From Leucoraja ocellata (taxonomy: Eukaryota), in NCBI GenBank assembly GCA_036785375.1, contig JAWMAR010001182.1:248001-312000 (forward strand): DNA of 64,000 bases, written 5' to 3'. Both the position numbers and the translations under genes were made by a program. Below are positions 811-47,335 of the stretch, one piece after another. The notes under the pieces are model-generated. The model saw only the letters and a program-made list of their open reading frames with translations, was not told the origin of the DNA and did no database searches. Position 1 is the first letter of the stretch. Each line of letters opens with the position of its first letter.

Positions 811-824
811 GCGCCCTCTAGCGA
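811..824 (-). promoter_or_regulatory. Putative CTCF-binding element downstream of V1 RSS
   Basis: Minus strand TCGCTAGAGGGCGC matches the CTCF core; 24 bp beyond the nonamer, the same spacing as at V4. Confidence 0.65.
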
Positions 825-848
825 TCGATTATGACAAACACCGAAGGT

Positions 849-887
849 GGATTTTGTTCGAGCCCGCGGCACATTTGCACCAGTGTG
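849..887 (-). promoter_or_regulatory. 23-bp-spacer recombination signal sequence of V1
   Basis: Minus strand CACACTG + 23 nt + ACAAAATCC abutting the V coding end. Confidence 0.9.
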
Positions 888-1191
888 TATCGCATAGCAC
901 ATATGTACAGGGCGGAATCGGAGAACACGCCGTCACGTATCACGAACTCGCCCGTCTTTGTAGTTGTATTGAATGTAGCAGATATCGATCTGTGATGCCC
1001 TTCTGCCCCTGTATACGTTATATCCTATAACCTGAATCAGGTACTGCGGAGAATGTCCAAGGCACTGCTTGTACCAGTAAACAAATGGGAGGGAATCGCT
1101 GGTTTTCAGCAGGCACTTGAGTGTTACATCCGTTCCCTCTGCAACGCGGTTTCTGCTTCGGTCTGTTCCACCGCATTTTGATGGCTCCAGT
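888..1191 (-). pseudogene. TCR alpha/delta-type V segment V1, V exon (frameshifted)
   Basis: After acceptor ttctcttAG the minus strand reads DWSHQNAVEQTEAET, then (shifted) VAEGTDVTLKCLLKTSDSLPFVYWYKQCLGHSPQYLIQ, then (shifted) SATFNTTTKTGEFVIRDGVFSDSALYICAMR. Ig-V Cys23, Trp41 and DSAxYxC motifs are present; a 23-RSS follows directly. At least 2 frameshifts. Confidence 0.88.
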
Positions 1192-1446
1192 CTAAGAGAA
1201 AATAGAAATTGTCAGAATCACCATGATTGAAGCGGCAGCTGCATTATCTTTACATCGGCAGAAATCAGGTGACAACATTCGTGGGAAGACAGGATTTTTA
1301 CTGGGTGAAAATCCTTACTGAGAAGAGACATGAGAACAAAGATCGGGAGGCGGTGCTCGCACATAATTGGCACGATTCTGTAAGTAAACAATCCTTGAAA
1401 CGCACGTCGGACCAAATATGCTAACTGTAGAACCAGCTAACTCAAC

Positions 1447-5572: not shown

Positions 5573-6094
5573 TAGGTTTTTATCTTGTGCCTCGATAGGT
5601 CATGGCAAATTTAGGCAACAATTCGGTAGGTCTATTATCACCAGAGAATGTTATTCATGTTTGTCATTGGTCACCTGAGTCAGGTACCACTGTTTGCTTT
5701 GGAATGTATGCATTTTCCTAATTTAATATTAATTACATGTTTTCTGCATTTCTTCCGTTCTAAACCATAAACATTTAAAACCAAATACTACTAAGTTAAG
5801 CTATGTGGCAACGTTTCCATTCGGTGTGGTCATTTTAACTGATAAACGGGTCAGGCAGTGTCTATGAAGGACGTGGAGGGGCGAACGTTTCCTGTCAGGA
5901 CTCTTCTTTCATCTGATTGTCGGCGGAAGAGGAAGCTGAAAAAGAGATGGGGGGGCAAAAAGCCTCGCGAGTATTATTTTTCAACCACAGCAAATTTCAC
6001 CAGGACCGCATTTCGTTTCTACGTTCCGATAAAAACTGGCGACGCGGCCGGAATTATGATGAATAACTCCATCGTATTTCTGTTTGTTTCACAG

Positions 6095-7001
6095 CCAATA
6101 TGGTGACGATCGTGATTCTCTCCCAGGGAAGATGCGGCCTTTCCAAATGCATTACTCGCTACCTGGTGTCCATGGCGTTGATGGATCTCCTGGTCATTCT
6201 CGCAGCCGTGATATTGACCCGGCTGCGGCCAATTTATTTCCCGCTTAGTTTCTTGGCAACAAATCCCGCCTGCAGTGTCGTTATTGCAGTCAGCTGGGCT
6301 TGCAAAGACACCTCCGTCTGGCTAACTGTCGCGTTCACCTTCGATCGGTTCATCGCCATTTGCTGCCAGCGACTGAAACACGGTTATTGTACGGAGAAAA
6401 CGGCGGCTGCAGTTATTGGAGTAATCTGCGCCCTTGTCTGTTTCAAAAACATACCGCTCTACTTTTGTTTATGAGCCCGTGTATATTATCGATAAGGTGC
6501 CCTGGTATTGCAGCATAAAATAAATCTATTATACTTCAACTTCCTGGCGAGTTTATGACTGGCTGCATCGTATATTAAACCCATGTCTCCCTTTCCTTCT
6601 GATTTTGTTCCTTAACGCTGTGACAGTGAGACACATCTTGGCGGCCAGTGGAGCCCGCAAGAGGCTCCGGGCCCAGAGCAATGGAGACAACCAGAGAGAT
6701 CCAGAGATGGAGAGCAGGAGGAAGTCCATCATTTTACTCTTCGCCATCTCGGGTAGTTTCCTGTTGCTTGCGCCTGACGTTCGTTGTCAACTTCCTGTTT
6801 GTGCAGTTTTCGAGCAACAACTATGCCAACAGTTCAAATTCCACTGACCCGAGCTTTATTCTTCAAGAAAGCGGATATATGCTAGAGCTTCTCAGTTCCT
6901 GCACCAATTCGTGCATTTATGCGGGGACGCAGACCAAATTCAGAGAGCAGTTGAAAAATGCGGTCACATACCCCTTCAACTTGATTAAGAAAATCAAGTA
7001 A
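6095..7001 (+). pseudogene. GPR139-like GPCR gene 1, exon 2 (two +1 frameshifts; pseudogene or assembly error)
   Basis: Acceptor tttcacAG|CC AAT ATG; (A)NMVTIVILSQGRCGLSKCITRYL...FTFDRF...PCLPF...SSCTNSCIY...KIK*. Single extra T at ~6463-6470 and ~6768-6770; no in-frame stops once corrected; AATAAA at ~7057. Confidence 0.88.
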
Positions 7002-12352: not shown

Positions 12353-13260
12353 CTATTTGAACCGTTTGCGAATTAGATAGAAAGGATACTTAACCACTTC
12401 CTGCAGCTGCTCTCTAAACTTAGTCTGTGTCCCCCCGTAAATGCACGAGTTGGTGCAAGAACTTAGTATCTCCAGCATGTATCCGCTTTCTTGGAGAATA
12501 AACCTGGGGTCGTTGGAATTGGAACGGGTTGCATAACCGCTGCTTGTAATTTGCACAAAGAGGAAGTTTGCGACGTAGGTCAATCGCAACAGCATAAAAC
12601 TGCCCGAGATCGCCATGAGTAGAATGATCGACTTCCGCCGACTCTCCATTTCCGGGTCACTTTGTTTTCCACCGTTGGTCTGGGCCCGGAGCCTCTTGCG
12701 GGCTGCGCTGGCAGCTAGAATGTGTCTGACCGTCACAACATTGAGCAACAGAATTAGTAGGAACGGGAGGCATGGGTTCAAAACGCGGTGTAGACAATCG
12801 TACACTATCCATGCAATTGAAGTGTAGTATGAATCTTTTATGGTGCAGAACCAGGGTATATTATCAATTATGTAGACTGGCTCATATATAAAATAAAATG
12901 GGGCGTTCTTCAAACAGCCTAACGCGCAGACCGTTGCAATAACACCCGCCGCGATTTTCTCAGTGCAATATATTAGTTTCAGTTTCTGACAGCAAATGGC
13001 GATGAACCGATCGAACGTGAAAGCGACCGTCAACCAGACGGAAGCGTCTTTTGAAATCCAGCTGAGGACAATAAGGACCTTGCAGGTCGGAATGGTAGAC
13101 AGGACTGTGTTCGGGAAATAAATAGCCCGAAGCCGGCTTAAGATCACGGCGGTGATGATGACCAGGAAGTCCATCACCGCCATGGATACCAGGTAGCGAG
13201 TGATACATTTGGAGAGGCCGCATCTTCCTTTGGATAGAATCGCAATCGTCACCAAATTCG
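12353..13260 (-). CDS. GPR139-like GPCR gene 2, exon 2 (intact 7TM)
   Basis: Acceptor ttctgcAG|CG AAT TTG; 300-aa open frame with SKGRCGLSKCITRYL, FTFDRF, TM5 PCLPF and TM7 SSCTNSCIY. Confidence 0.93.
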
Positions 13261-13294
13261 CTGCAGAACAGAGGGAGAGACCGGGATATTAATA

Positions 13295-25175: not shown

Positions 25176-25333
25176 NNNNNNNNNNNNNNNNNNNNNNNNN
25201 NNNNNNNNNNNNNNNNNNNNNNNNNNNNNNNNNNNNNNNNNNNNNNNNNNNNNNNNNNNNNNNNNNNNNNNNNNNNNNNNNNNNNNNNNNNNNNNNNNNN
25301 NNNNNNNNNNNNNNNNNNNNNNNNNNNNNNNNN
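25176..25333. other. Assembly gap (158 N)
   Basis: Run of N. Confidence 1.
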
Positions 25334-28453: not shown

Positions 28454-29367
28454 TCACTGACAGACTTTAGCTCGGATGGGTTTCGTCGATTTTGTAATGA
28501 GAATGCATGGGAGTTTGAATGCCTGGAGCAGTTGTTTTCTGAACTTCCTCTGGGTTATGGTGTAAATAGCCGTGTTTGTGCAGGTGCTGAACAGCTGGAG
28601 TAGAATAGCAACTTTGTGGAGCAATGGGAAACTGTTACTCGACGATACGCGATGAGGTGATGGTATAATATGATTGTAAATAAAATCTGCGATTGTTGTC
28701 GCCCAGAGGAGGATAAAACTAGTAGTGATTGCAAGGAGTAAAATAATGGACTGCCTGCGGTTCGCTGTCTCCGGGTCCGCGCTGCTCAGTTCCCGGAGGT
28801 TCCTGCGGATCCAAATGGCCTGTAAAATGCATCTGATAGTGAGGGTGTTAAAGGAGAAAATCATACAGAACGGAATGCCTGGGGTTAACAATTGGTCGGC
28901 CACAGAAAACGCCACCCATCCGGTCAGAGTATAAACATGCGGCGAACGGAGGCAGCCTTGTTGACCAACGGAAGATGTTAAATACCCGATGTACGCGAAG
29001 GGCCATGGGATGTTCTTTACAGAGAAGAGCGCGGTCAATGTCCCTACAACCACCACCGCGGTTCTCCCGGTGCAGTACCTGGTTCTCATATTCAGGGTGG
29101 AAATGGCTACAAAGCGGTCAAACGTGAACGCCACGGTAAACCAGACGGAACAGTCTACAGCCACGGCCGCCATGAAGATAATGGACTTGCACACCGGAGT
29201 GTAGAACAAGAATGTGTGCCTCCAATAGATTCCGGCAACCAGCTCTAACAGCACCTTGCCTATGATCGTCGAGAGGTCCGCCGTAGCCATGGCCACCAGG
29301 TAACGGGTGATGCATTTGGAGAGGCCGCACTTTCCACGACACAGGATCACAATGGTAACCAGGTTCA
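28454..29367 (-). CDS. GPR139-like GPCR gene 3, exon 2 (intact 7TM)
   Basis: Acceptor ttctcccAG|TG AAC CTG; open frame (V)NLVTIVILCRGKCGLSKCITRYL...FTFDRF...LLWAT...STCTNTAIY. Confidence 0.93.
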
Positions 29368-29747
29368 CTGGGAGAAAAGAAAAAAAATAATGACGTTCAA
29401 TTGCATGATAAATTTATGACATAAAATGAGCTGTGGAAGTGTATTGTACAATTACACTGTTGCCTTTTTAGCCGTATCGGTGGCCCCCTGTCAATGGCCC
29501 CATTGGCTCGGCTATGCGCCTGATCCCACAGCCAAACATGCTTCATCTCAACAACTCGTTCACCGACGTCTCTGACGTGAGGAAGTACGGCATACCTGCT
29601 AAAGTTCTGATGCAGTTGTGCAATTCGTCGGCGAGAAATCACCCGGAGAACTACGGGGAGGATGCCATTAGCGTTGGAAAAAGTGCGAAGGTGATTTCCC
29701 AATATCTTACTGGAACTGCGGTCTTGAATGGTAGCGAGAGGTCGGTT

Positions 29748-31875: not shown

Positions 31876-32659
31876 GTTTCAGATTTCCGTCTTCTTGGTC
31901 GTAACTGTGGTCTATCCTGTACGTAACTGGACGCGGGCAGATCATGAGCCAAGTGAAACACGCTGGTGTATTTATACTCTAAATAATACACAGTAGAATT
32001 AAATGGAAAATTAGACCACTTCCCCCGAGCATCGCGAATGAGTCTTGGCAAAAACAATATTTCGTTCCCCAGTGATGGTGAGCAATCAATGTAAGGTCCT
32101 CTGCACATTACGCGTACACCAGCTGAGCACTTTCTGCAACAAAATATGAAACAGTTACAATTTACATTATGGTGATATATAAGACCGCAGGTGCTGACAT
32201 TTGAGGAAAACACAAAATGGTTGTCAACCACTTTCGACCATTAGGGAGACTGACAAATACCTCCAGGAACCGCACGGAAACCTTGCGTGGGGCACAACGT
32301 ATCAGAGGGTTTTGGTCAGGTTTCCTAAGTGGGACAGGGGCACACGGGAAGGGTGGTGAGGGGAGGTATTGTTTTCTGCCACCGACCAGAGGTTTCCGCA
32401 GGGTCCGAGTGAAGTTAGCCACTTTTCACGTTACTTATTTAGTTTTCTGGATGTTGGTATTGAAACAACTCGCGTCGTTTGAAGCTTGCTTTGTTTCTCG
32501 GGTTCACCAGGATGCAGTGGCTGATAAGTACATCCGAGGTTTCTCAGGTTTCCTGTCAATGTGTGTATGAGCACCGGTCGGCGCTCTCCACATGGCGGCC
32601 ACATTGGGCCCTTGAACCCATGCGAGACCCAGAAAGGAGAGGAAAGGCTCACCGCAGGC

Positions 32660-32698
32660 AGTTTTTGCATTACGAAGAGACTGCTTTCGATCATTGTG
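32660..32698 (-). promoter_or_regulatory. 23-RSS of V2
   Basis: CACAATG + 23 nt + GCAAAAACT. Confidence 0.9.
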
Positions 32699-33010
32699 GA
32701 ACTCAGGGCGCAGTAATACACAGCTGAGTCTGTCAGCTGGAGACCCCAAATAGTTAAATGCACAATCGAAGTCGCAGTCTGGAGATCCGCAGAGAAACGG
32801 TTCTCTAATATGTCTCCCCGTTCTTCCTGTTGGTCCCAAGACTGTTTCAGCACGATCATCTCAGGATTCTCCGCCGCAATTTGGCGGTACCAATATAAAC
32901 AATAGGCGGAATGCTGTAGTATTGTAGGTACAGGTTAGTTTCACCAAATCATCTTTTCTCTGTCTCAGTGAAGACTGGCTCTGAGTGATCGGAATCCCCA
33001 GCGCCCTGCC
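32699..33010 (-). pseudogene. TCR alpha/delta-type V segment V2, V exon (two +1 indels; pseudogene or assembly error)
   Basis: GQGAGDS/ITQSQSSLRQRKDDLVKLTCTYNTTA/SAYCLYWYRQIAAENPEMIVLKQSWD...RFSADLQTATSIVHLTIWGLQLTDSAVYYCALS. Confidence 0.92.
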
Positions 33011-33182
33011 CTGTGAAATGGATTCCGGGTCAAAAAACGGCCGTTAGACGGTGGAAGGGAACAAATGGAACGTTTCGACAAACACACTTTTACACAACAT
33101 TGTATTAGAATGCATCAGTTGCGAAGGGCTACATGGAACAAAGAAACGGACACCACAGTAACAAGCCGGTCTGCCCACAATC

Positions 33183-33498
33183 TTCCAGAACAAGGGGTCA
33201 CAGTTTAAGGATAAGGGGGAAATCTTTGAGGACTGAGATGAGAAAAATATTTTTCACACAGCGAGTGGTGAATCTATGAATTTTCTGCCACAGATTGTAG
33301 TTGAGGCCAGTTCATTGGCTATATTTAAGAGGGAGTTAGATGTGGCCCTTGTGGCTAAAGGAATCAGGGGGTATGGAGAGAAGGCAGGTACAGGATACTG
33401 AGTTGGATGATCAGCCATGATCATATTGAATGGCGGTGCAGGCTCGAAGGGCCGAAAGGCCTACTCCTGCCACCTATTTTCTATGTTTATATGTTTCT
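33183..33498 (+). mobile_element. CR1/HER1 3' fragment in V2 intron
   Basis: Family tail; apparent TSD ACAATCT. Confidence 0.88.
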
Positions 33499-34138
33499 AC
33501 AATCTCTGTGCCAAACATGATGCCAAGATGAACTAAACGTATCTCCTCCTGCACATTGCCGATATCTCTCCTGATCGTGTATATCCTTGTGTTTATCTAA
33601 AAGCCTCTTAAAAGGCCACTGTCATATCGGTTCTATCACCATGTTCGGCAGCATGTCCCAGGCATTACCGCTCTCTCCGTAAATAACTCGCACGTTTCGT
33701 TCGATGTTTTGCCCATTTCACCTTTAAGTTAGGCCATCTACTCTCTAATATTTCCACCTTAAGAAACACAAAACCTTTCACTTTGCCGTCAGAATATTCA
33801 CTTTCACCGCAGTTCATGTACATCCACCAGGTCTCAGCCTCTAACAATCCACGGAAAACAAGCCAACTCTGCCCCGACTCTTCTGAAAGCTAGCACCCTC
33901 TAATGCAAGTAGTATTCTGGCAATGAAGCTGGCGACACTCTATCTTCGGTTTAAACCAGCATCTGCAGATCCTTCCTGGTAACCCTAGTATGCATCCTAT
34001 CCAAAATCTTCATGCTCTTCCTTAAATAAGACGGTGGGATCTGTAAGCAACGCTACACATGCGCCTAACCAATGTCCTTTAACGCTGCACCGCCATAGAT
34101 GTTTCTACACTGTGTCCATTTTCTACAATGTTTCCATG

Positions 34139-34649
34139 GGAAGGACATCCTTGTGATTGAGGCAGTGCAGCGTAGGTTCACGAGATTGATCCCTGGGATG
34201 GCGGGACTGTCATATGAGGAAGGATTGAAAAGACTAGGCTTGTATTCACTGGAGTTTAGAAGGGTGAGGGGGTTTCTTCTAGAAAATCATACAATTATAA
34301 AAGGACTGGACAAGCTAAATGCAGGAAAAATAGTCCCTATGTTGGGCGAGTCCAGAACCAGGGGCCGCAGTCTCAGAATAAAGGGGAGGCCATTTAAGAC
34401 TGAGGTGAGAAAAACAGAGAGTTGTGAATTTATGGAATTCCCTGCCACAGAGGGCAGTGGAGGCCAAGTCACTGGATGGATTTAAGAGAGAGTTAGATAG
34501 AGTTCTAGGGGCTAGTGGAATCAAGGGATACGGGAGAAGGCAGGCACGGGTTATTGATAGGGGACGATCAGCCATGATCACAATGAATGGCGGTGCTGGG
34601 TCGAAGGGCCGAATGACCTCCTCCTGCACCCAATTTCTATGTTTCTATG
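34139..34649 (+). mobile_element. CR1 LINE 3' fragment in V2 intron
   Basis: KDILVIEAVQRRFTRLIPGM... plus tail. Confidence 0.9.
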
Positions 34650-35016
34650 TTGCTATGGTTCACATCACACATTGGTTGTCATGGGGATTGGAGCCAGCAA
34701 AGTCTCGGTACACGACCATGGCAGACAGCAGATTGAAGTATCTGCTACGAATAAAACACAATGTCGCACATGTTAACCCTCCTGCCATAACTCATCTTCC
34801 AGACTGGAGTGCCCAGCAAGTACAGACTGCTGAAAACAGACTGCACTCGAGGCTTCCAGGGCGGTTAGGAGCCACATTCGCCAGGTCGATTGTGAACACT
34901 AATCCCTGACCCCTCGGAAATTTCACGAACATTGTGAATATTAAAGACAATCTCAAGAACACGTGGATAACAAAATTATCTTCCGTTCACGTCACGGTTG
35001 GCTTGAAGGTACTTAC

Positions 35017-36832: not shown

Positions 36833-37858
36833 GCATCTGCAGTTCTTTGCTGCACATTTTGTCCCCGACACAATCTGGGCTCGAGTCCAACGTTGCATTG
36901 CAAACGATATTTCCCCGCTTAACTGAACGGAAACACCTGCGGATTCTGTGCAGAGATTAACGAGCGACCTCCTGTGGCTGATCGGAGATAGTGACTGCTA
37001 ACCCAAGGCTCCAATACCTTGCAAGATGCTGATATCTTCTACTGGCAACGCGCGCAGCAATTGAATACTTACAGCTAGTTCCGATTTAAACTTTAATTGC
37101 TAAAGCGCAACAAACTGCTGGCGAAACATAGCGACTTGGTGGCATCTCTGGAGAACATGGATGGGTTATGCCTTAGCTCCAGCAGCAATATAGATTGCAT
37201 ATGATCATATGATACATGCACAACCCTGCCCCAGAATGCTATACATAGATATAAGAATTACGGAATATCAGCAGTTTGAATGCATCGGGTAATACGCGCA
37301 GAGATAGGTCCCAAGAAACTAAAGTTTAACAAGGTCACAAGAGATAGGAGCAGAATTAGGCCATTCGGTCCATCACGTTTACTTCGCCATTCAACCAGGA
37401 TATATCTCTCCCTCCTAACCCCATTCTCCTGCCGCGCAGGAAACGGTTGAACAAGATAAGAGCCACTTGTATTGGAAGCTAGATACTAGTATCGATATTT
37501 GTTCGGTTGACTGACAGGAGGCAGAGTGAAGAAAGGGGGAGTGGGGGAGGGAGGGAGGGGGGGGGGGGGCTATGTTAATGCCACTGACCAGAGATTTCCG
37601 CAGCGTCGGACTTGAATGAGCAATTTTACACTTTATATTTTATTGTCTAGATCATGGAATTGAAACAAATCGCGTCGTTTGAAGTTTGCTTAGTTTCTTT
37701 GGTTCACCAGGATGCGGTGGCTGACAAGTATATCCGAGGTTTCCTGCCTGTGTGTGTGTGTGGCTGCGCACCTATTGGCGCTCTGCACATGGCTGCCCCA
37801 ATTGAGCTCTTGAACCCCTGGGAAACACAGACAATGACAAGAAAGGCTCACCACAGGC

Positions 37859-37897
37859 GGTTATTGCACTGCGCAGAGACTGCTTCCAATCACTGTG
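37859..37897 (-). promoter_or_regulatory. 23-RSS of V3
   Basis: Perfect heptamer CACAGTG + 23 nt + GCAATAACC. Confidence 0.92.
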
Positions 37898-38206
37898 GAA
37901 CTCAGGGCGCAGTAATACACTGCAGAGTCTGTCAGCTGGAGGCCCCAGATAGTTAAATGGACAAATGAAGTCGCTGTCTGGAGATCCATGGAGAACCGTT
38001 TCTCTAATATGTCTCCCGATGTTTCCCGATGGTCCCAAGATCGTATCATCACGATAAACTCAGGATTTTCCTCGGCAATTTGTCGATACCAATATAACAA
38101 TACGTGGATGCTGCAGTATTGTAGGTGCAGGTTAGTTTCACCAATTCACCTTTTCCGTGTCTCAGTAAAGACTCGGTCTGAGTGATCGAATCCCCGGCGC
38201 CCTGTC
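37898..38206 (-). pseudogene. TCR alpha/delta-type V segment V3, V exon (single 1-bp deletion; possibly functional if an assembly error)
   Basis: QGAGDSITQTESLLRHGKGELVKLTCTYNTAASTYC/LYWYRQIAEENPEFIVMIRSWD...RFSMDLQTATSFVHLTIWGLQLTDSAVYYCALS; paralog of V2. Confidence 0.92.
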
Positions 38207-38357
38207 CTGTGAAATAGATTCCGTGTCAAGAGAACAATAGTGGCCGTTAGACGATGGTTTCGTTTGACCGCCGAACAAATGCAACGTTTCGACATTCGGA
38301 CAAAATACACGTTTACATAATGTTACTCCGTGTTTCAGAAAACATCAGCTGCGAAGG

Positions 38358-38655
38358 ATAAGGATAAGGGGGAAATATTTTAGGAGTGAGATGAGAAAAC
38401 CATTTTTCACACACAGAGAGTGGTCAGTCTGTGGAATTCTCTGCCACAGCAGGTAGTTGAGGCCACATTTCATTGGCTATTATTTAAGAGGGAGTTAGAT
38501 GTGGCCCTTGTGGCTAAGGGATCAGGGGTATGGAGAGAAGGCAGGCACGGGATACTGAGTTGGATGATGAGCCGTGATCATATTGAATGGCGGTGCAAGC
38601 TCGAAGGCCGAATGGCCTAATCCTGCACATTTTTTCTATGTTTCTATCTTTCTAT
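38358..38655 (+). mobile_element. CR1/HER1 3' fragment in V3 intron
   Basis: Family tail. Confidence 0.88.
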
Positions 38656-39044
38656 AACATGGAACAGAAATACGGGCAGAATCGGAACAAGACGTTCAGC
38701 CAACAATGTCTGCGCCGAACATGATGCAAAGCTCAACTAAGTGCATCTTCTGTAAATCACTCATATCTCTCCTTTCCGTGCATGTCCGTGTGTTTATCTC
38801 AAACCCTCTTAAAAGCCTCTGTCGTATCGCCTCTATCACCACCCCCGGCAGCATGTCCCATGTACTTACCGCTCTCCCCGTAAATAACCCGTACACATCG
38901 TTTGCGTTTTGCCCGCTTCACCTTAATGGAAGGGCATCTAGTATTTAATAATTCCACAGTGGGAAAGAAAAACCCGTTCTGAATGCCTACACTTTCCATA
39001 TCTCTCATAGGTTCCATATACTTTAATCAGATCGGAGCCCCTAA

Positions 39045-39264
39045 TGCCCCTGTCCCACTTAGGAACCCTGAACGGAAACCTCTGGAGACTTCGCGCCCCA
39101 CCAAAGGTTTCCGTGCGGTTCCCGGAGGTTTTTGTCAGTCTCCCTCCCTGCTTCCACTACCTGCAACCTCCGGCAACCACCTGCAACCTTCGGGAACCGC
39201 ACGGAAACCTTGGGTGGGGCGCAAAGTATCCGGAGGTTTCCGTTCCTAAGTGGGACAGGGGCCA
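39045..39264. mobile_element. Harbinger-like MITE (complete)
   Basis: TIRs TGCCCCTGTCCCACTTAGGAA / TTCCTAAGTGGGACAGGGGCCA with long internal inverted arms and TAA/TTA flanks. Absent from the paralogous V2 intron; a partial copy lies at ~32245-32342. Confidence 0.75.
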
Positions 39265-40035
39265 TTATAATCCATGTTAAACAAGCCAACTCTGCCCCAT
39301 CTGGCCTGAAAGTTAGCACCCTTTAATCCAAGTAGTATTCTGGGTATAGGGCTGGAGATACTAAATCTTCGGTTTAAACCAGCACCTTCAGTTCCTTCCA
39401 ACTAGTTTCTGGTAGTCCTAGCCTGCATCCTAACCAAAACCTCCACGCGTTTCCATCAATAAGACGATGGGAACTGTAGGCGACGCTACAAATGCGGCCA
39501 AACCAAGGTCTTTAAGCGCTGCATCGTGTTGTTGCAACAGTGGATTTTTCCACAATGGGTCCTATAGTGCACAGCACCCGTTGGCTGCGATAGCAATTGA
39601 ACCCAGCAAGGTCTAGCGAGACGGACATGGCAGACAGCAGATTGAATTATCTGCTAAGAAAAAAAAAACACCACCACAATGGCGCACATGTGAAATATCC
39701 TGCCCGAACTCATTTTCCAGATTGAAGTGTTCAGCAAGTACACACAACTCAGACTGCACTCGAGGAGTCCATGGATGTCACGAGCCCCAGTCTCCAGGCC
39801 GATTGTGACCACTACTCCCGGACTCTTCAGAAATCCCACGAACATTGAGAATATAGCCGACAAATGGCCGAATGGCCTATTCCTGCACACATTTTCTATG
39901 TTTCTAGGTTTCTATGTGTCTAAATCACAGATCTCGAAGGGCCGAAGGGCCTCCTCCTGCACCTATTTTCTATGTTTCTATGTCTATGTCAAAGTTGGCT
40001 TCAGTTAACCTCACTTTTGTCTTAAAGGTACTTAC

Positions 40036-45230: not shown

Positions 45231-46330
45231 CTACCTCTACCTGTATGCACATGTTGCCGCTGTGGCGCAGCAGGGAGACGGTACGGTGCGCCACTCCGAA
45301 CAGCAGCAGTTCTTGAAGTTCTTGAGACACCTCATCATTGCATTAACCAAAGGCCGGACGAGAGCGCCAGATTCATGCACGGAGTTGGAAAACTACGTGG
45401 GGGTGGTAAAGTACCGGCTATTTCCCATGACTGTCGTGTGTCGTCGTGCTGGGATGTCCTTGTTTAATCCGTTGGCTGGAAAAACACAAGAAAATACTTT
45501 GATACTCTTTCTCCCCTCTTCCAATGGGGTTCGGTTATAAGATTGTCGTCTGTTTAGGACGGAGAACTTTTGATGAAGGTAACTTACATCGAGGTAGAGT
45601 TTGGTCGCAGTCAGAGATTGAAACTACAAAGTTACAATTTGAACCCCGGAACAAGTTGCTGTGTTGCGGGAGACCAGCAGGAACGACCCGGGGCTCCAGC
45701 TGCGGAGCTGCCGACTACTCACCGTCACGGGGCTGGCCGAGTCAGGAGCGGGTGGAGCGGTGGTGGAGCGCTGCTGCCACCAGACCTTCGGAGATTCGGA
45801 GGCTCCAACTGCGGGTCTGGCGGATGGCGGCACCGGGAGCCCGCGGGTCCCTGCTGGGAGACCGCTTTTCGGGGCTTCCGCAACGGCGACTTCTCCCGCC
45901 CGAGTTGCGGGGTTGAAGAGCACCTGAGCGGGGCCTTACAGCATCGTCCGCGCGGCCTGGAATGGCCGCGGGACTTTGCGAGCGGACGCCGGGGGGCTCT
46001 AACAACTAGACCCGATGTGCGACCTTGCATCACCCGGCGTGGCTTTAATGGCCGCGGGGACAATCGCCATCGCCAGCAGGGGGCTTTGACTTTGACTCTG
46101 ACTCTGACATCGGGGGGGGGGGGGGGGGGGGGGGGGGGAGAGTGCAGTGGAGAGATAAGTTTGTTTGCCTTCCATCGCAGCGATGTTGTGTCTCGGGTCT
46201 TTTTTGTTTTTGTAATGTATGGCTGCAGAAACGACATTTCGTTTGGACCTCAAGGGGTCCAAATGACAAATAAATTGTATTGTATTGTTGCTATTTCATT
46301 GTTTGCGTATTTTCGTGCCAGTTGTGGAGT

Positions 46331-46344: not shown

Positions 46345-46368
46345 CTCCGTGCACAATTGCATGCGGTG

Positions 46369-47335
46369 TGTTTTTGTGCGTGTCCGCCATGTTTCTTCGG
46401 CAACGTGGCGGAGTCGGTAATCTCGCACGCGCGGATGATTAACCTAATAAGGTTTTTGCAGCCTTATTGTACGTGGAAGAGAATCGGACTGTGAGACCCC
46501 ATTTCTCTTTAGTATCCTTGCCGTAATCCGAAACAGGATCACTTGCTGCCGCCCACGTCGCTGTCTGTACCAATAAACATTCAGGATTGGCCCTGCCGTT
46601 CTAAAGGAGCATTCTAGCGCGATGGCATCTTCATAGCAAAAGGATTTGAGGATTTGAGTATAGGAGCATGGAGGTTCTACTGCAGTTGTACAGGGTCTTG
46701 GTGAGACCACACCTGGAGTATTGAGTACAGTTTTGGTCTCCAAATCTGAGGAAGGACATTATTGTCATAGAGGGAGTGCAGAGAAGGTTCACCAGACTGA
46801 TTCATGGGATGTCATGACTGTCTTATGAAGAAAGACTGGATAGACTTGGTTTATACTCTCTATAATTTAGGAGATTGAGAGGGGATCTTATAGAAACTTA
46901 CACAATTCTTAAGGGGTTGGACAGGCTAGATGCAGGAAGATTGTTTCCGGTGTTGGGGAAGTCCAGGACAAGGGGTCACAGCTTAAGGATAAGGGGAAAT
47001 CCTTTAAAACCGAGATGAGAATAACTTTTTTCACACAGAGAGTGGTGAATCTCTGGAACTCTCTGCCACAGAGGGTAGTCGAGGCCAGTTCATTGGATAT
47101 ATTTAAGAGGGAGTTAGATGTGGCCCTTGTGGCTAAGGGGATCAGAGGGTATGGAGAGAAGGCAGGTACAGGATACCGAGTTGGATGATCAGCCATGATC
47201 ATATTGAATGGCAATGCAGGCTCGAAGGGCCGAATGGCCTACTCCTGCACCTAATTTCTATGTTTCTATGTTCTATGTTAACTGCGAACGTCATTTCAGA
47301 GACCGACTGTGCCACCGAGTCCTGGATGCTCCAGT
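46369..47335 (-). pseudogene. TCR V segment V4 pseudogene (V1 family), split by a CR1 insertion and lacking YxC and the heptamer
   Basis: Acceptor ctgttAG|AC TGG; DWSIQDSVAQSVSEMTFAV [CR1 46632-47278] EDAIALECSFRTAGPILNVYWYRQ...RFSSTYNKAAK...LIIRACEITDSAT, then a deletion up to a residual nonamer. Confidence 0.85.
46632..47278 (+). mobile_element. CR1/HER1 LINE 3' fragment inserted in the V4 exon
   Basis: ORF2 C-terminus plus tail; removing it restores FAV-EDAIALEC in frame. Confidence 0.92.

Follow-up and report, generated by a model that had tools for sequence, protein, structure and literature searches.

Does a V segment of a cartilaginous-fish T-cell receptor (TCR) carry, behind its recombination signal sequence (RSS), a CTCF site of the kind that accompanies mammalian immunoglobulin VH genes? 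No control on V choice is better understood than CTCF sites linked to the RSS. In the literature consulted they are described for mammalian IgH, namely for mouse and human, with site density given for chimpanzee and rabbit in addition (PMC6746451). A first-pass annotation of the window, i.e. of the whole 64-kb stretch of skate DNA analysed here, had placed a CTCF motif exactly 24 bp past the RSS nonamer of the first V segment (V1) and had read the arrangement as a mouse-like V-RSS-CBE (CTCF-binding element) layout. A literature search, made mostly without subscription papers or preprint supplements, returned no report of CTCF sites next to an RSS for any cartilaginous fish or teleost, and the accessible parts of PMC7696796 and PMC13433984 contained no fish CTCF data. 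Regarding the machinery, skate TAD borders were reported to carry oriented CTCF motifs, which were taken as loop extrusion (PMC10115646), and CTCF-bounded loop extrusion has been described in early vertebrates (bioRxiv 10.64898/2026.10.19.759930).

The 23-RSS of V1 is located on the minus strand at 849..887, with the heptamer CACACTG at 887-881, a 23-nt spacer at 880-858 and the nonamer ACAAAATCC at 857-849. Heptamer and nonamer have one mismatch each. The nonamer is followed by a gap of 24 nt (825..848, minus strand) and then by the candidate CTCF core TCGCTAGAGGGCGC at 824-811 (minus strand; 19-mer 827-809), which was matched by both the matrix and the consensus. The core lies on the sense strand of V1, and its first position is a T. 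For scoring we used a CTCF position weight matrix with MA0139.1-like counts; the bit scores and site p values given below rest on these counts. With this matrix the V1 site reached 13.7 bits (p = 6.5e-6) and rank 4 in the window, which held 5 CTCF-type sites at p < 1e-5 vs 1.3 expected. The odds of finding a V1-grade site at most 60 nt behind one given nonamer on the same strand were about 4e-4. With respect to the published CTCF consensus CCASYAGRKGGCRS the V1 core has 2 mismatches. At this level the 64-kb window contained 9 matches vs 11.05 expected, and the V1 consensus match alone is no excess over chance.

The gap of exactly 24 nt is particular to the sequence studied. An extra G behind 848 was present in all 4 aligned sequencing runs, which come from 3 other organisms, such that the V1 gap amounts to 25 nt in those three organisms. 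The offset originally claimed on the V strand was thus correct for the sequence at hand and shifted by one base in its relatives. Among the differences listed for run X8 there was no substitution in 809-827, which at a divergence of about 3% carries no weight. Two small runs from two studies with unrecorded library type, X16 and X19, gave single-copy contigs only at 736-958 and 822-982, respectively, and the aligned part of X19 stops within the CTCF motif. A reading of these contigs around RSS and motif as CTCF binding was dropped, since the runs had been chosen by this stretch and absent cover proves nothing. In runs X8 and X12 we also saw a V1-family paralogue that is about 80% alike (852-982) and whose alignment stops at the nonamer.

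To which receptor does V1 belong? Its exon (888..1191, minus strand) is frameshifted and was classed as TCR-alpha-like from Pfam V-set, structure-bank matches and relatives. The V1 pieces match Pfam V-set, and their best structure-bank matches are mostly TCR alpha chains, the second piece matching only at E > 0.06. The closest named proteins are from Heterodontus, Chiloscyllium and Scyliorhinus, one of them being named TCR alpha chain-like; protein searches with single V pieces as query gave no matches. A candidate leader exon at 1319..1364 (minus strand), with an ATG at 1364 and a GT donor at 1318, was found by sequence reading only. V1 combines a V-set exon, a candidate split leader, a 23-RSS and nearest likeness to TCR alpha V, and in a tree of 36 rows it groups apart from the VH rows. 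By these relations the V attached to the putative site is TCR-alpha-like and not an immunoglobulin VH. The structure-bank matches and the name of the clade member bear out the earlier assignment of V1 to the TCR V genes of a cartilaginous fish.

In the sequence studied the V1 exon has 4 in-frame stops. Part of the V1 stretch was found in 20 of the 21 runs listed, none of which contained half of its words. Four single-base indels in the V1 exon, relative to the sequence studied, are common to X8 and X12. When the listed differences are applied, the V1 frame is open over 100 codons with 0 stops in both runs, whereby the X12 frame was built with about half of its 51 substitutions, namely those listed. 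Of the indels in the V1 region 3 of 5 lie in base runs, and these indels may be local sequence errors.

A second copy of the site was found in the window behind V4, a pseudogene of the V1 clade (46408..47335, minus strand) that is frameshifted and split by a LINE-type repeat at about 46633-47278. The RSS of V4 (46369..46407, minus strand) consists of a heptamer at 46407, a 23-nt spacer and a nonamer at 46377-46369. The heptamer is damaged (2 mismatches), and the end of the V including the YxC codons is missing. The putative CTCF core CCGCCAGATGGCGC at 46344-46331 (minus strand) starts 24 nt past the nonamer in the same orientation as at V1. It has 1 mismatch to the published consensus and, with 15.7 bits (p = 2.1e-6), rank 3 in the window. 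V1 and V4 agree at 11 of 14 core positions and at 7 of 9 nonamer positions vs 4 of 24 positions in the gap. In the sequence 3' of the core they agree at 9 of the next 20 nt and at 15 of the next 40 nt, and a comparison of the 100-nt flanks of the V1 and V4 sites with the rest of the window gave no match for either. These identities indicate that the putative core is kept while the gap sequence diverged, the gap length being fixed.

The two remaining V segments of the window served as internal controls. V2, a member of a second V family with a 23-RSS (32660..33010, minus strand), has its heptamer at 32698, and its paralogue V3 (37859..38210, minus strand) at 37897. Both are parts of a tandem duplication (32377-34941 and 37579-39854) with copies that are about 76-79% alike. 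Within 300 nt downstream we found no strong CTCF site for V2 (best p = 2.0e-4) or for V3 (best p = 1.6e-4). Behind both there were weak matches with gaps of 61 (forward) and about 140 (reverse); at p about 2e-4 they fell short of the threshold and were discarded. Nor was there a strong CTCF site in the 900 nt upstream of any of the four V heptamers (best p = 2.3e-4). The site is carried by 2 of the 4 V segments in the window, and these are the 2 of 2 V1-clade members. The expectation of a motif behind the V RSSs therefore held for V1 and V4 and failed for the second V family.

All four V segments lie on the minus strand and all are frameshifted. Scanning the 64-kb window for J, D and C elements revealed no J-like motif, no convincing 12-RSS and neither a D nor a C. 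Many LINE pieces are located between the V segments, and interleaved with them are rhodopsin-family GPCR frames at 12353-13288 (minus), 28454-29413 (minus), 63053-63997 (plus) and 6067-6474 (plus), which may be GPR139-like by their look. Three are intact single-exon frames of 311-319 codons that match Pfam 7tm_1, and one is a short, similar frame. The three stop-free frames weaken a general assembly error as the cause of the V frameshifts. With all four Vs frameshifted and the GPCR neighbours open, the species may have here an orphan V region or one in decay. The other high-scoring CTCF sites of the window (50616, 46070, 36980, 29290, 18267 and 26911) are preceded by neither a V nor an RSS and were set aside; two lie within a repeat and some within GPCR genes. 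One CTCF-type match at 46070-46088 (plus strand, p = 2.0e-6), about 280 nt past the V4 nonamer, has the opposite orientation and may belong to a repeat. The window also contains an assembly gap, seen as an N run of 158 bases at 25176-25333.

How far the arrangement extends beyond this skate was addressed with database proteins. In the 36-row tree V1, V4 and 8 database V domains form one clade with a support of 97/95, and V2 and V3 are placed elsewhere. In some gene predictions the reading frame continues beyond the V, such that RSS and flank are translated. In these read-through tails the CTCF motif was tried at every offset, each score being a mean over synonymous codons. From 160 proteins 36 tails were long enough, 5 from the V1 clade and 31 from other V families. 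The 5 clade tails had been picked by eye first and were later backed by the tree; the clade proteins P0007, P0032 and P0108, being without a usable tail, were left out. The tail scores refer to translations and not to DNA, assume unspliced read-through and come from clade members that are related by descent.

An offset of 24 or 25 was the best of 27-61 in P0037, P0092 (Chiloscyllium), P0149 (Heterodontus) and P0152. In P0015, the closest protein to V1, the core is degenerate with at least 3 mismatches, and the 24-25 offset ranked 2nd with the matrix and 3rd with the published consensus. The summed score of the clade tails was reached in 0 of 5000 shuffles. The same result (0 of 5000) was obtained for P0149 and P0152 alone, which stand outside the search-query alignment. 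Replacing the matrix by the published consensus (PMC6746451) gave 4 of 5 tails and 0 of 3000 shuffles. In the 31 non-clade tails a gap of 24-25 ranked first in 4, and at this gap none of the 31 exceeded 2.7 bits. Fits of at least 5 bits were found on the forward strand in 4 of the 5 clade tails and on the reverse strand in 0 of 5. For P0037 and P0149 the nonamer was set one base later (24-nt spacer); with a 23-nt spacer their gaps are 26 and 25. These two tails suggest, as far as translations tell, a nonamer one base later than usual. The first-pass annotation had named the absence of the motif at this offset from other V genes of the family as evidence against its claim. What we found is the motif in the DNA of V4 and in 4 of 5 clade tails.

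CTCF sites can be bipartite, and we scored the upstream module (zinc finger 9-11) with a simple consensus from PMC12885311, in the tails via translations only. V4 has a possible upstream module at 46353..46362 (minus strand), which fits at 6 of 10 positions with a 5-nt linker, and for V1 the fit was at best 4 of 10. In 4 of 5 clade tails the best linker was 6, which was reached in 2 of 5000 shuffles. Most clade members fit a predicted upstream module that begins 5-6 nt past the nonamer, such that the full CTCF footprint would sit directly beside the nonamer and leave it free. Compared to the bipartite sites of PMC12885311, V4 and 4 of 5 clade tails show a possible fit, and V1 itself does not fit.

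For bony fish we searched metagenome contigs for V ends that carry a 23-RSS, which provided 122 loci. Of the matches, 29 come from V genes of fish hosts; judged by eye, 18 of these are VH-like and 11 TCR-alpha-like, and the set is partly redundant. One teleost VH-like locus (L042) has a sense-strand core 23 nt past the nonamer (p = 5.3e-7), and two others (L015 and L041) have weaker sense-strand cores at 35 and 34 nt (p = 4.5e-5 and 1.3e-4, respectively). A CTCF core behind the RSS was found in 0 of the 11 TCR-alpha-like fish genes of the scan, and a best site at 15-30 nt with p < 1e-4 in 0 of the 93 other matches. In the 31 non-clade tails fits of at least 7 bits were seen in 5 on the forward strand vs 1 on the reverse strand, with 0.9 obtained by shuffling (P = 0.002). 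The five are teleost TCR-alpha-like models (P0058, P0089, P0082, P0134 and P0064) with core gaps of 33, 33, 29, 37 and 49; the organisms are Danionella, two notothenioids, Alosa and Hippoglossus. As gene models they may be spliced and are a lead only. The teleost data lean to an old origin of the arrangement, with varying gaps.

From the position, strand and clade-wide recurrence of the motif we consider it rather probable that it represents a conserved RSS-linked CTCF element in the V cassette of one elasmobranch TCR-alpha-like V clade, which would bind CTCF, pause extrusion and hold the RSS near RAG. In analogy with the proximal VH genes of mouse, CTCF would bind the V1-clade site in thymocytes. 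The bound CTCF would then pause cohesin loop extrusion from the J-side recombination centre, which the site is assumed to face, and the pause would park the V RSS at the RAG complex and raise the chance of joining. Since rearrangement removes the site together with the signal end, it would act only before joining. Two observations count against a simple role in V usage: the stronger DNA site belongs to V4, which is incapable of productive rearrangement, and the protein nearest to V1, P0015, has a decayed core. Further points against the main reading are that V1 is frameshifted here, has no clear upstream module and begins its core with a T. In mouse, mutation of the VH81X site cuts VH81X use (review PMC6439775).

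A true CTCF site could also do its work without pausing a RAG scan, namely as a loop anchor or as a local opener that positions nucleosomes by the RSS and thereby aids diffusion capture. All sequence evidence would fit this reading equally well, and a predicted footprint that abuts the nonamer speaks for it. The mouse Tcrb V-linked CTCF site is reported to act via loops and diffusion and not by scanning alone; loops start from it, and joining occurs whichever way the RSS points (PMC10772921). Inversion of the VH81X site likewise lowers use only modestly (review PMC6439775). Against it stands that every scored clade member has the site in one orientation, and mouse Tcra/d joining is described as orientation-restricted (PMC10772921). 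We regard this reading as rather unlikely. It is improbable, in our estimate, that a conserved site is present but has another job, be it the insulation of V cassettes from GPCR genes and repeats or the binding of another zinc-finger factor. In its favour are the three intact 7TM frames and the many LINE pieces between the V segments; sites with an upstream module are typical of insulators (PMC12885311), and it is a pseudogene, V4, that keeps the best site. Yet insulation does not need a base-exact distance to the nonamer, and the gap is 24-25 across sharks and this skate. That both CTCF modules fit at the known linker speaks for CTCF, and V2 and V3 lie among the same neighbours without a site.

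A chance match, or a neutral leftover that was copied with the V duplications, would agree with the missing excess in the window at 2 mismatches (9 vs 11), with V1 and V4 being paralogues whose 3' bases are somewhat alike (9/20 and 15/40), and with both genes being broken here. Against this, the gap is at chance identity and the core is not; moreover, the same offset is best in distant sharks, with the second module in register. The tail tests have largely refuted this reading already, and we think it very improbable.

Taking the motif as an RSS-linked CTCF element of the V1 clade, a family-wide site of this kind in a cartilaginous-fish TCR clade would mean that the design reaches another receptor and the oldest V(D)J lineage. 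Because in mouse the CTCF sites of TCR alpha/delta are reported to lie upstream of the promoters, such a site in a TCR-alpha-like clade would be a new form of the mammalian Igh RSS-CBE design. Public genomes of sharks and rays, together with open-chromatin and repertoire data, now allow a test of the age of loop-extrusion control of V choice, for which genes of the V2/V3 type provide built-in negatives. The results suggest that the part played by chromosome looping in the choice of immune gene segments is very old. A more tentative idea, possible though in our view not probable, is that V exon, 23-RSS and CTCF site form a cassette of ancestral jawed vertebrates, older than the separation of bony from cartilaginous fish and perhaps even than that of VH and TCR alpha/delta V. 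This cassette would have been kept here, in some teleost VH genes (L042, gap 23) and teleost TCR-alpha-like genes (gaps 29-49) and in the mammalian VH clans II/III, whereas mouse Tcra, with its sites upstream of promoters, would have lost it. If this is true, CTCF-paced loop extrusion would have shaped V choice since V(D)J recombination began.

Finally we compare the V1-clade site with the known systems. The RSS-CBEs of mouse and human VH genes share with it that the core follows the nonamer of a 23-RSS on its 3' side, at a short and constant distance and in sense orientation, that presence goes by V family and that the site is lost on rearrangement. A site within about 70-100 bp 3' of the V RSS was found here for V1 and V4 (24 nt). 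In mouse the RSS-linked sites are reported 17-19 bp past the nonamer, counted to a 14-mer whose first base precedes the core by 2 nt, and in human at 19 or 48 bp (PMC6746451). The gap to the first core base is thus 24-25 nt here vs about 19-21 nt in mouse, such that of the proposed mouse-like layout the orientation stood while the spacing turned out 3-6 nt longer. The length of the mouse gap is kept and its sequence is not; between V1 and V4, gap and core contrast in the way reported for mouse (PMC6746451). In human some 90% of the clan 2/3 VH genes are reported with CTCF, other loci being left open (PMC4914699). Non-functional mouse 7183/Q52 genes are typically without the site, whereas the pseudogene V4 has it. 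For VH RSS-CBEs binding and function were shown in mouse, while the clade site is a predicted one.

The TCR loci of mouse offer a different comparison. Tcra/d is the same kind of locus, but its CTCF sites are described as intergenic or as lying upstream of V promoters (PMC5859386, Table 2) and not at the RSS, unlike the putative ones of the V1 clade. Of the 144 bound sites in the Tcra/Tcrd V region, 129 are directed at the J-C end (PMC5859386), and joining in mouse Igh and Tcra/d, almost all of it convergent for Tcra/d, is as under scanning (PMC10772921). In Tcrb 2 of 18 bound sites are near an RSS (PMC5859386); these V-linked sites are exceptions and not a family trait, and diffusion-based joining is also used (PMC5859386, PMC10772921). 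Taken together, the predicted clade site resembles a mammalian VH RSS-CBE in core, position, constancy of the gap and orientation, but by V type and gap length it does not belong to that group.
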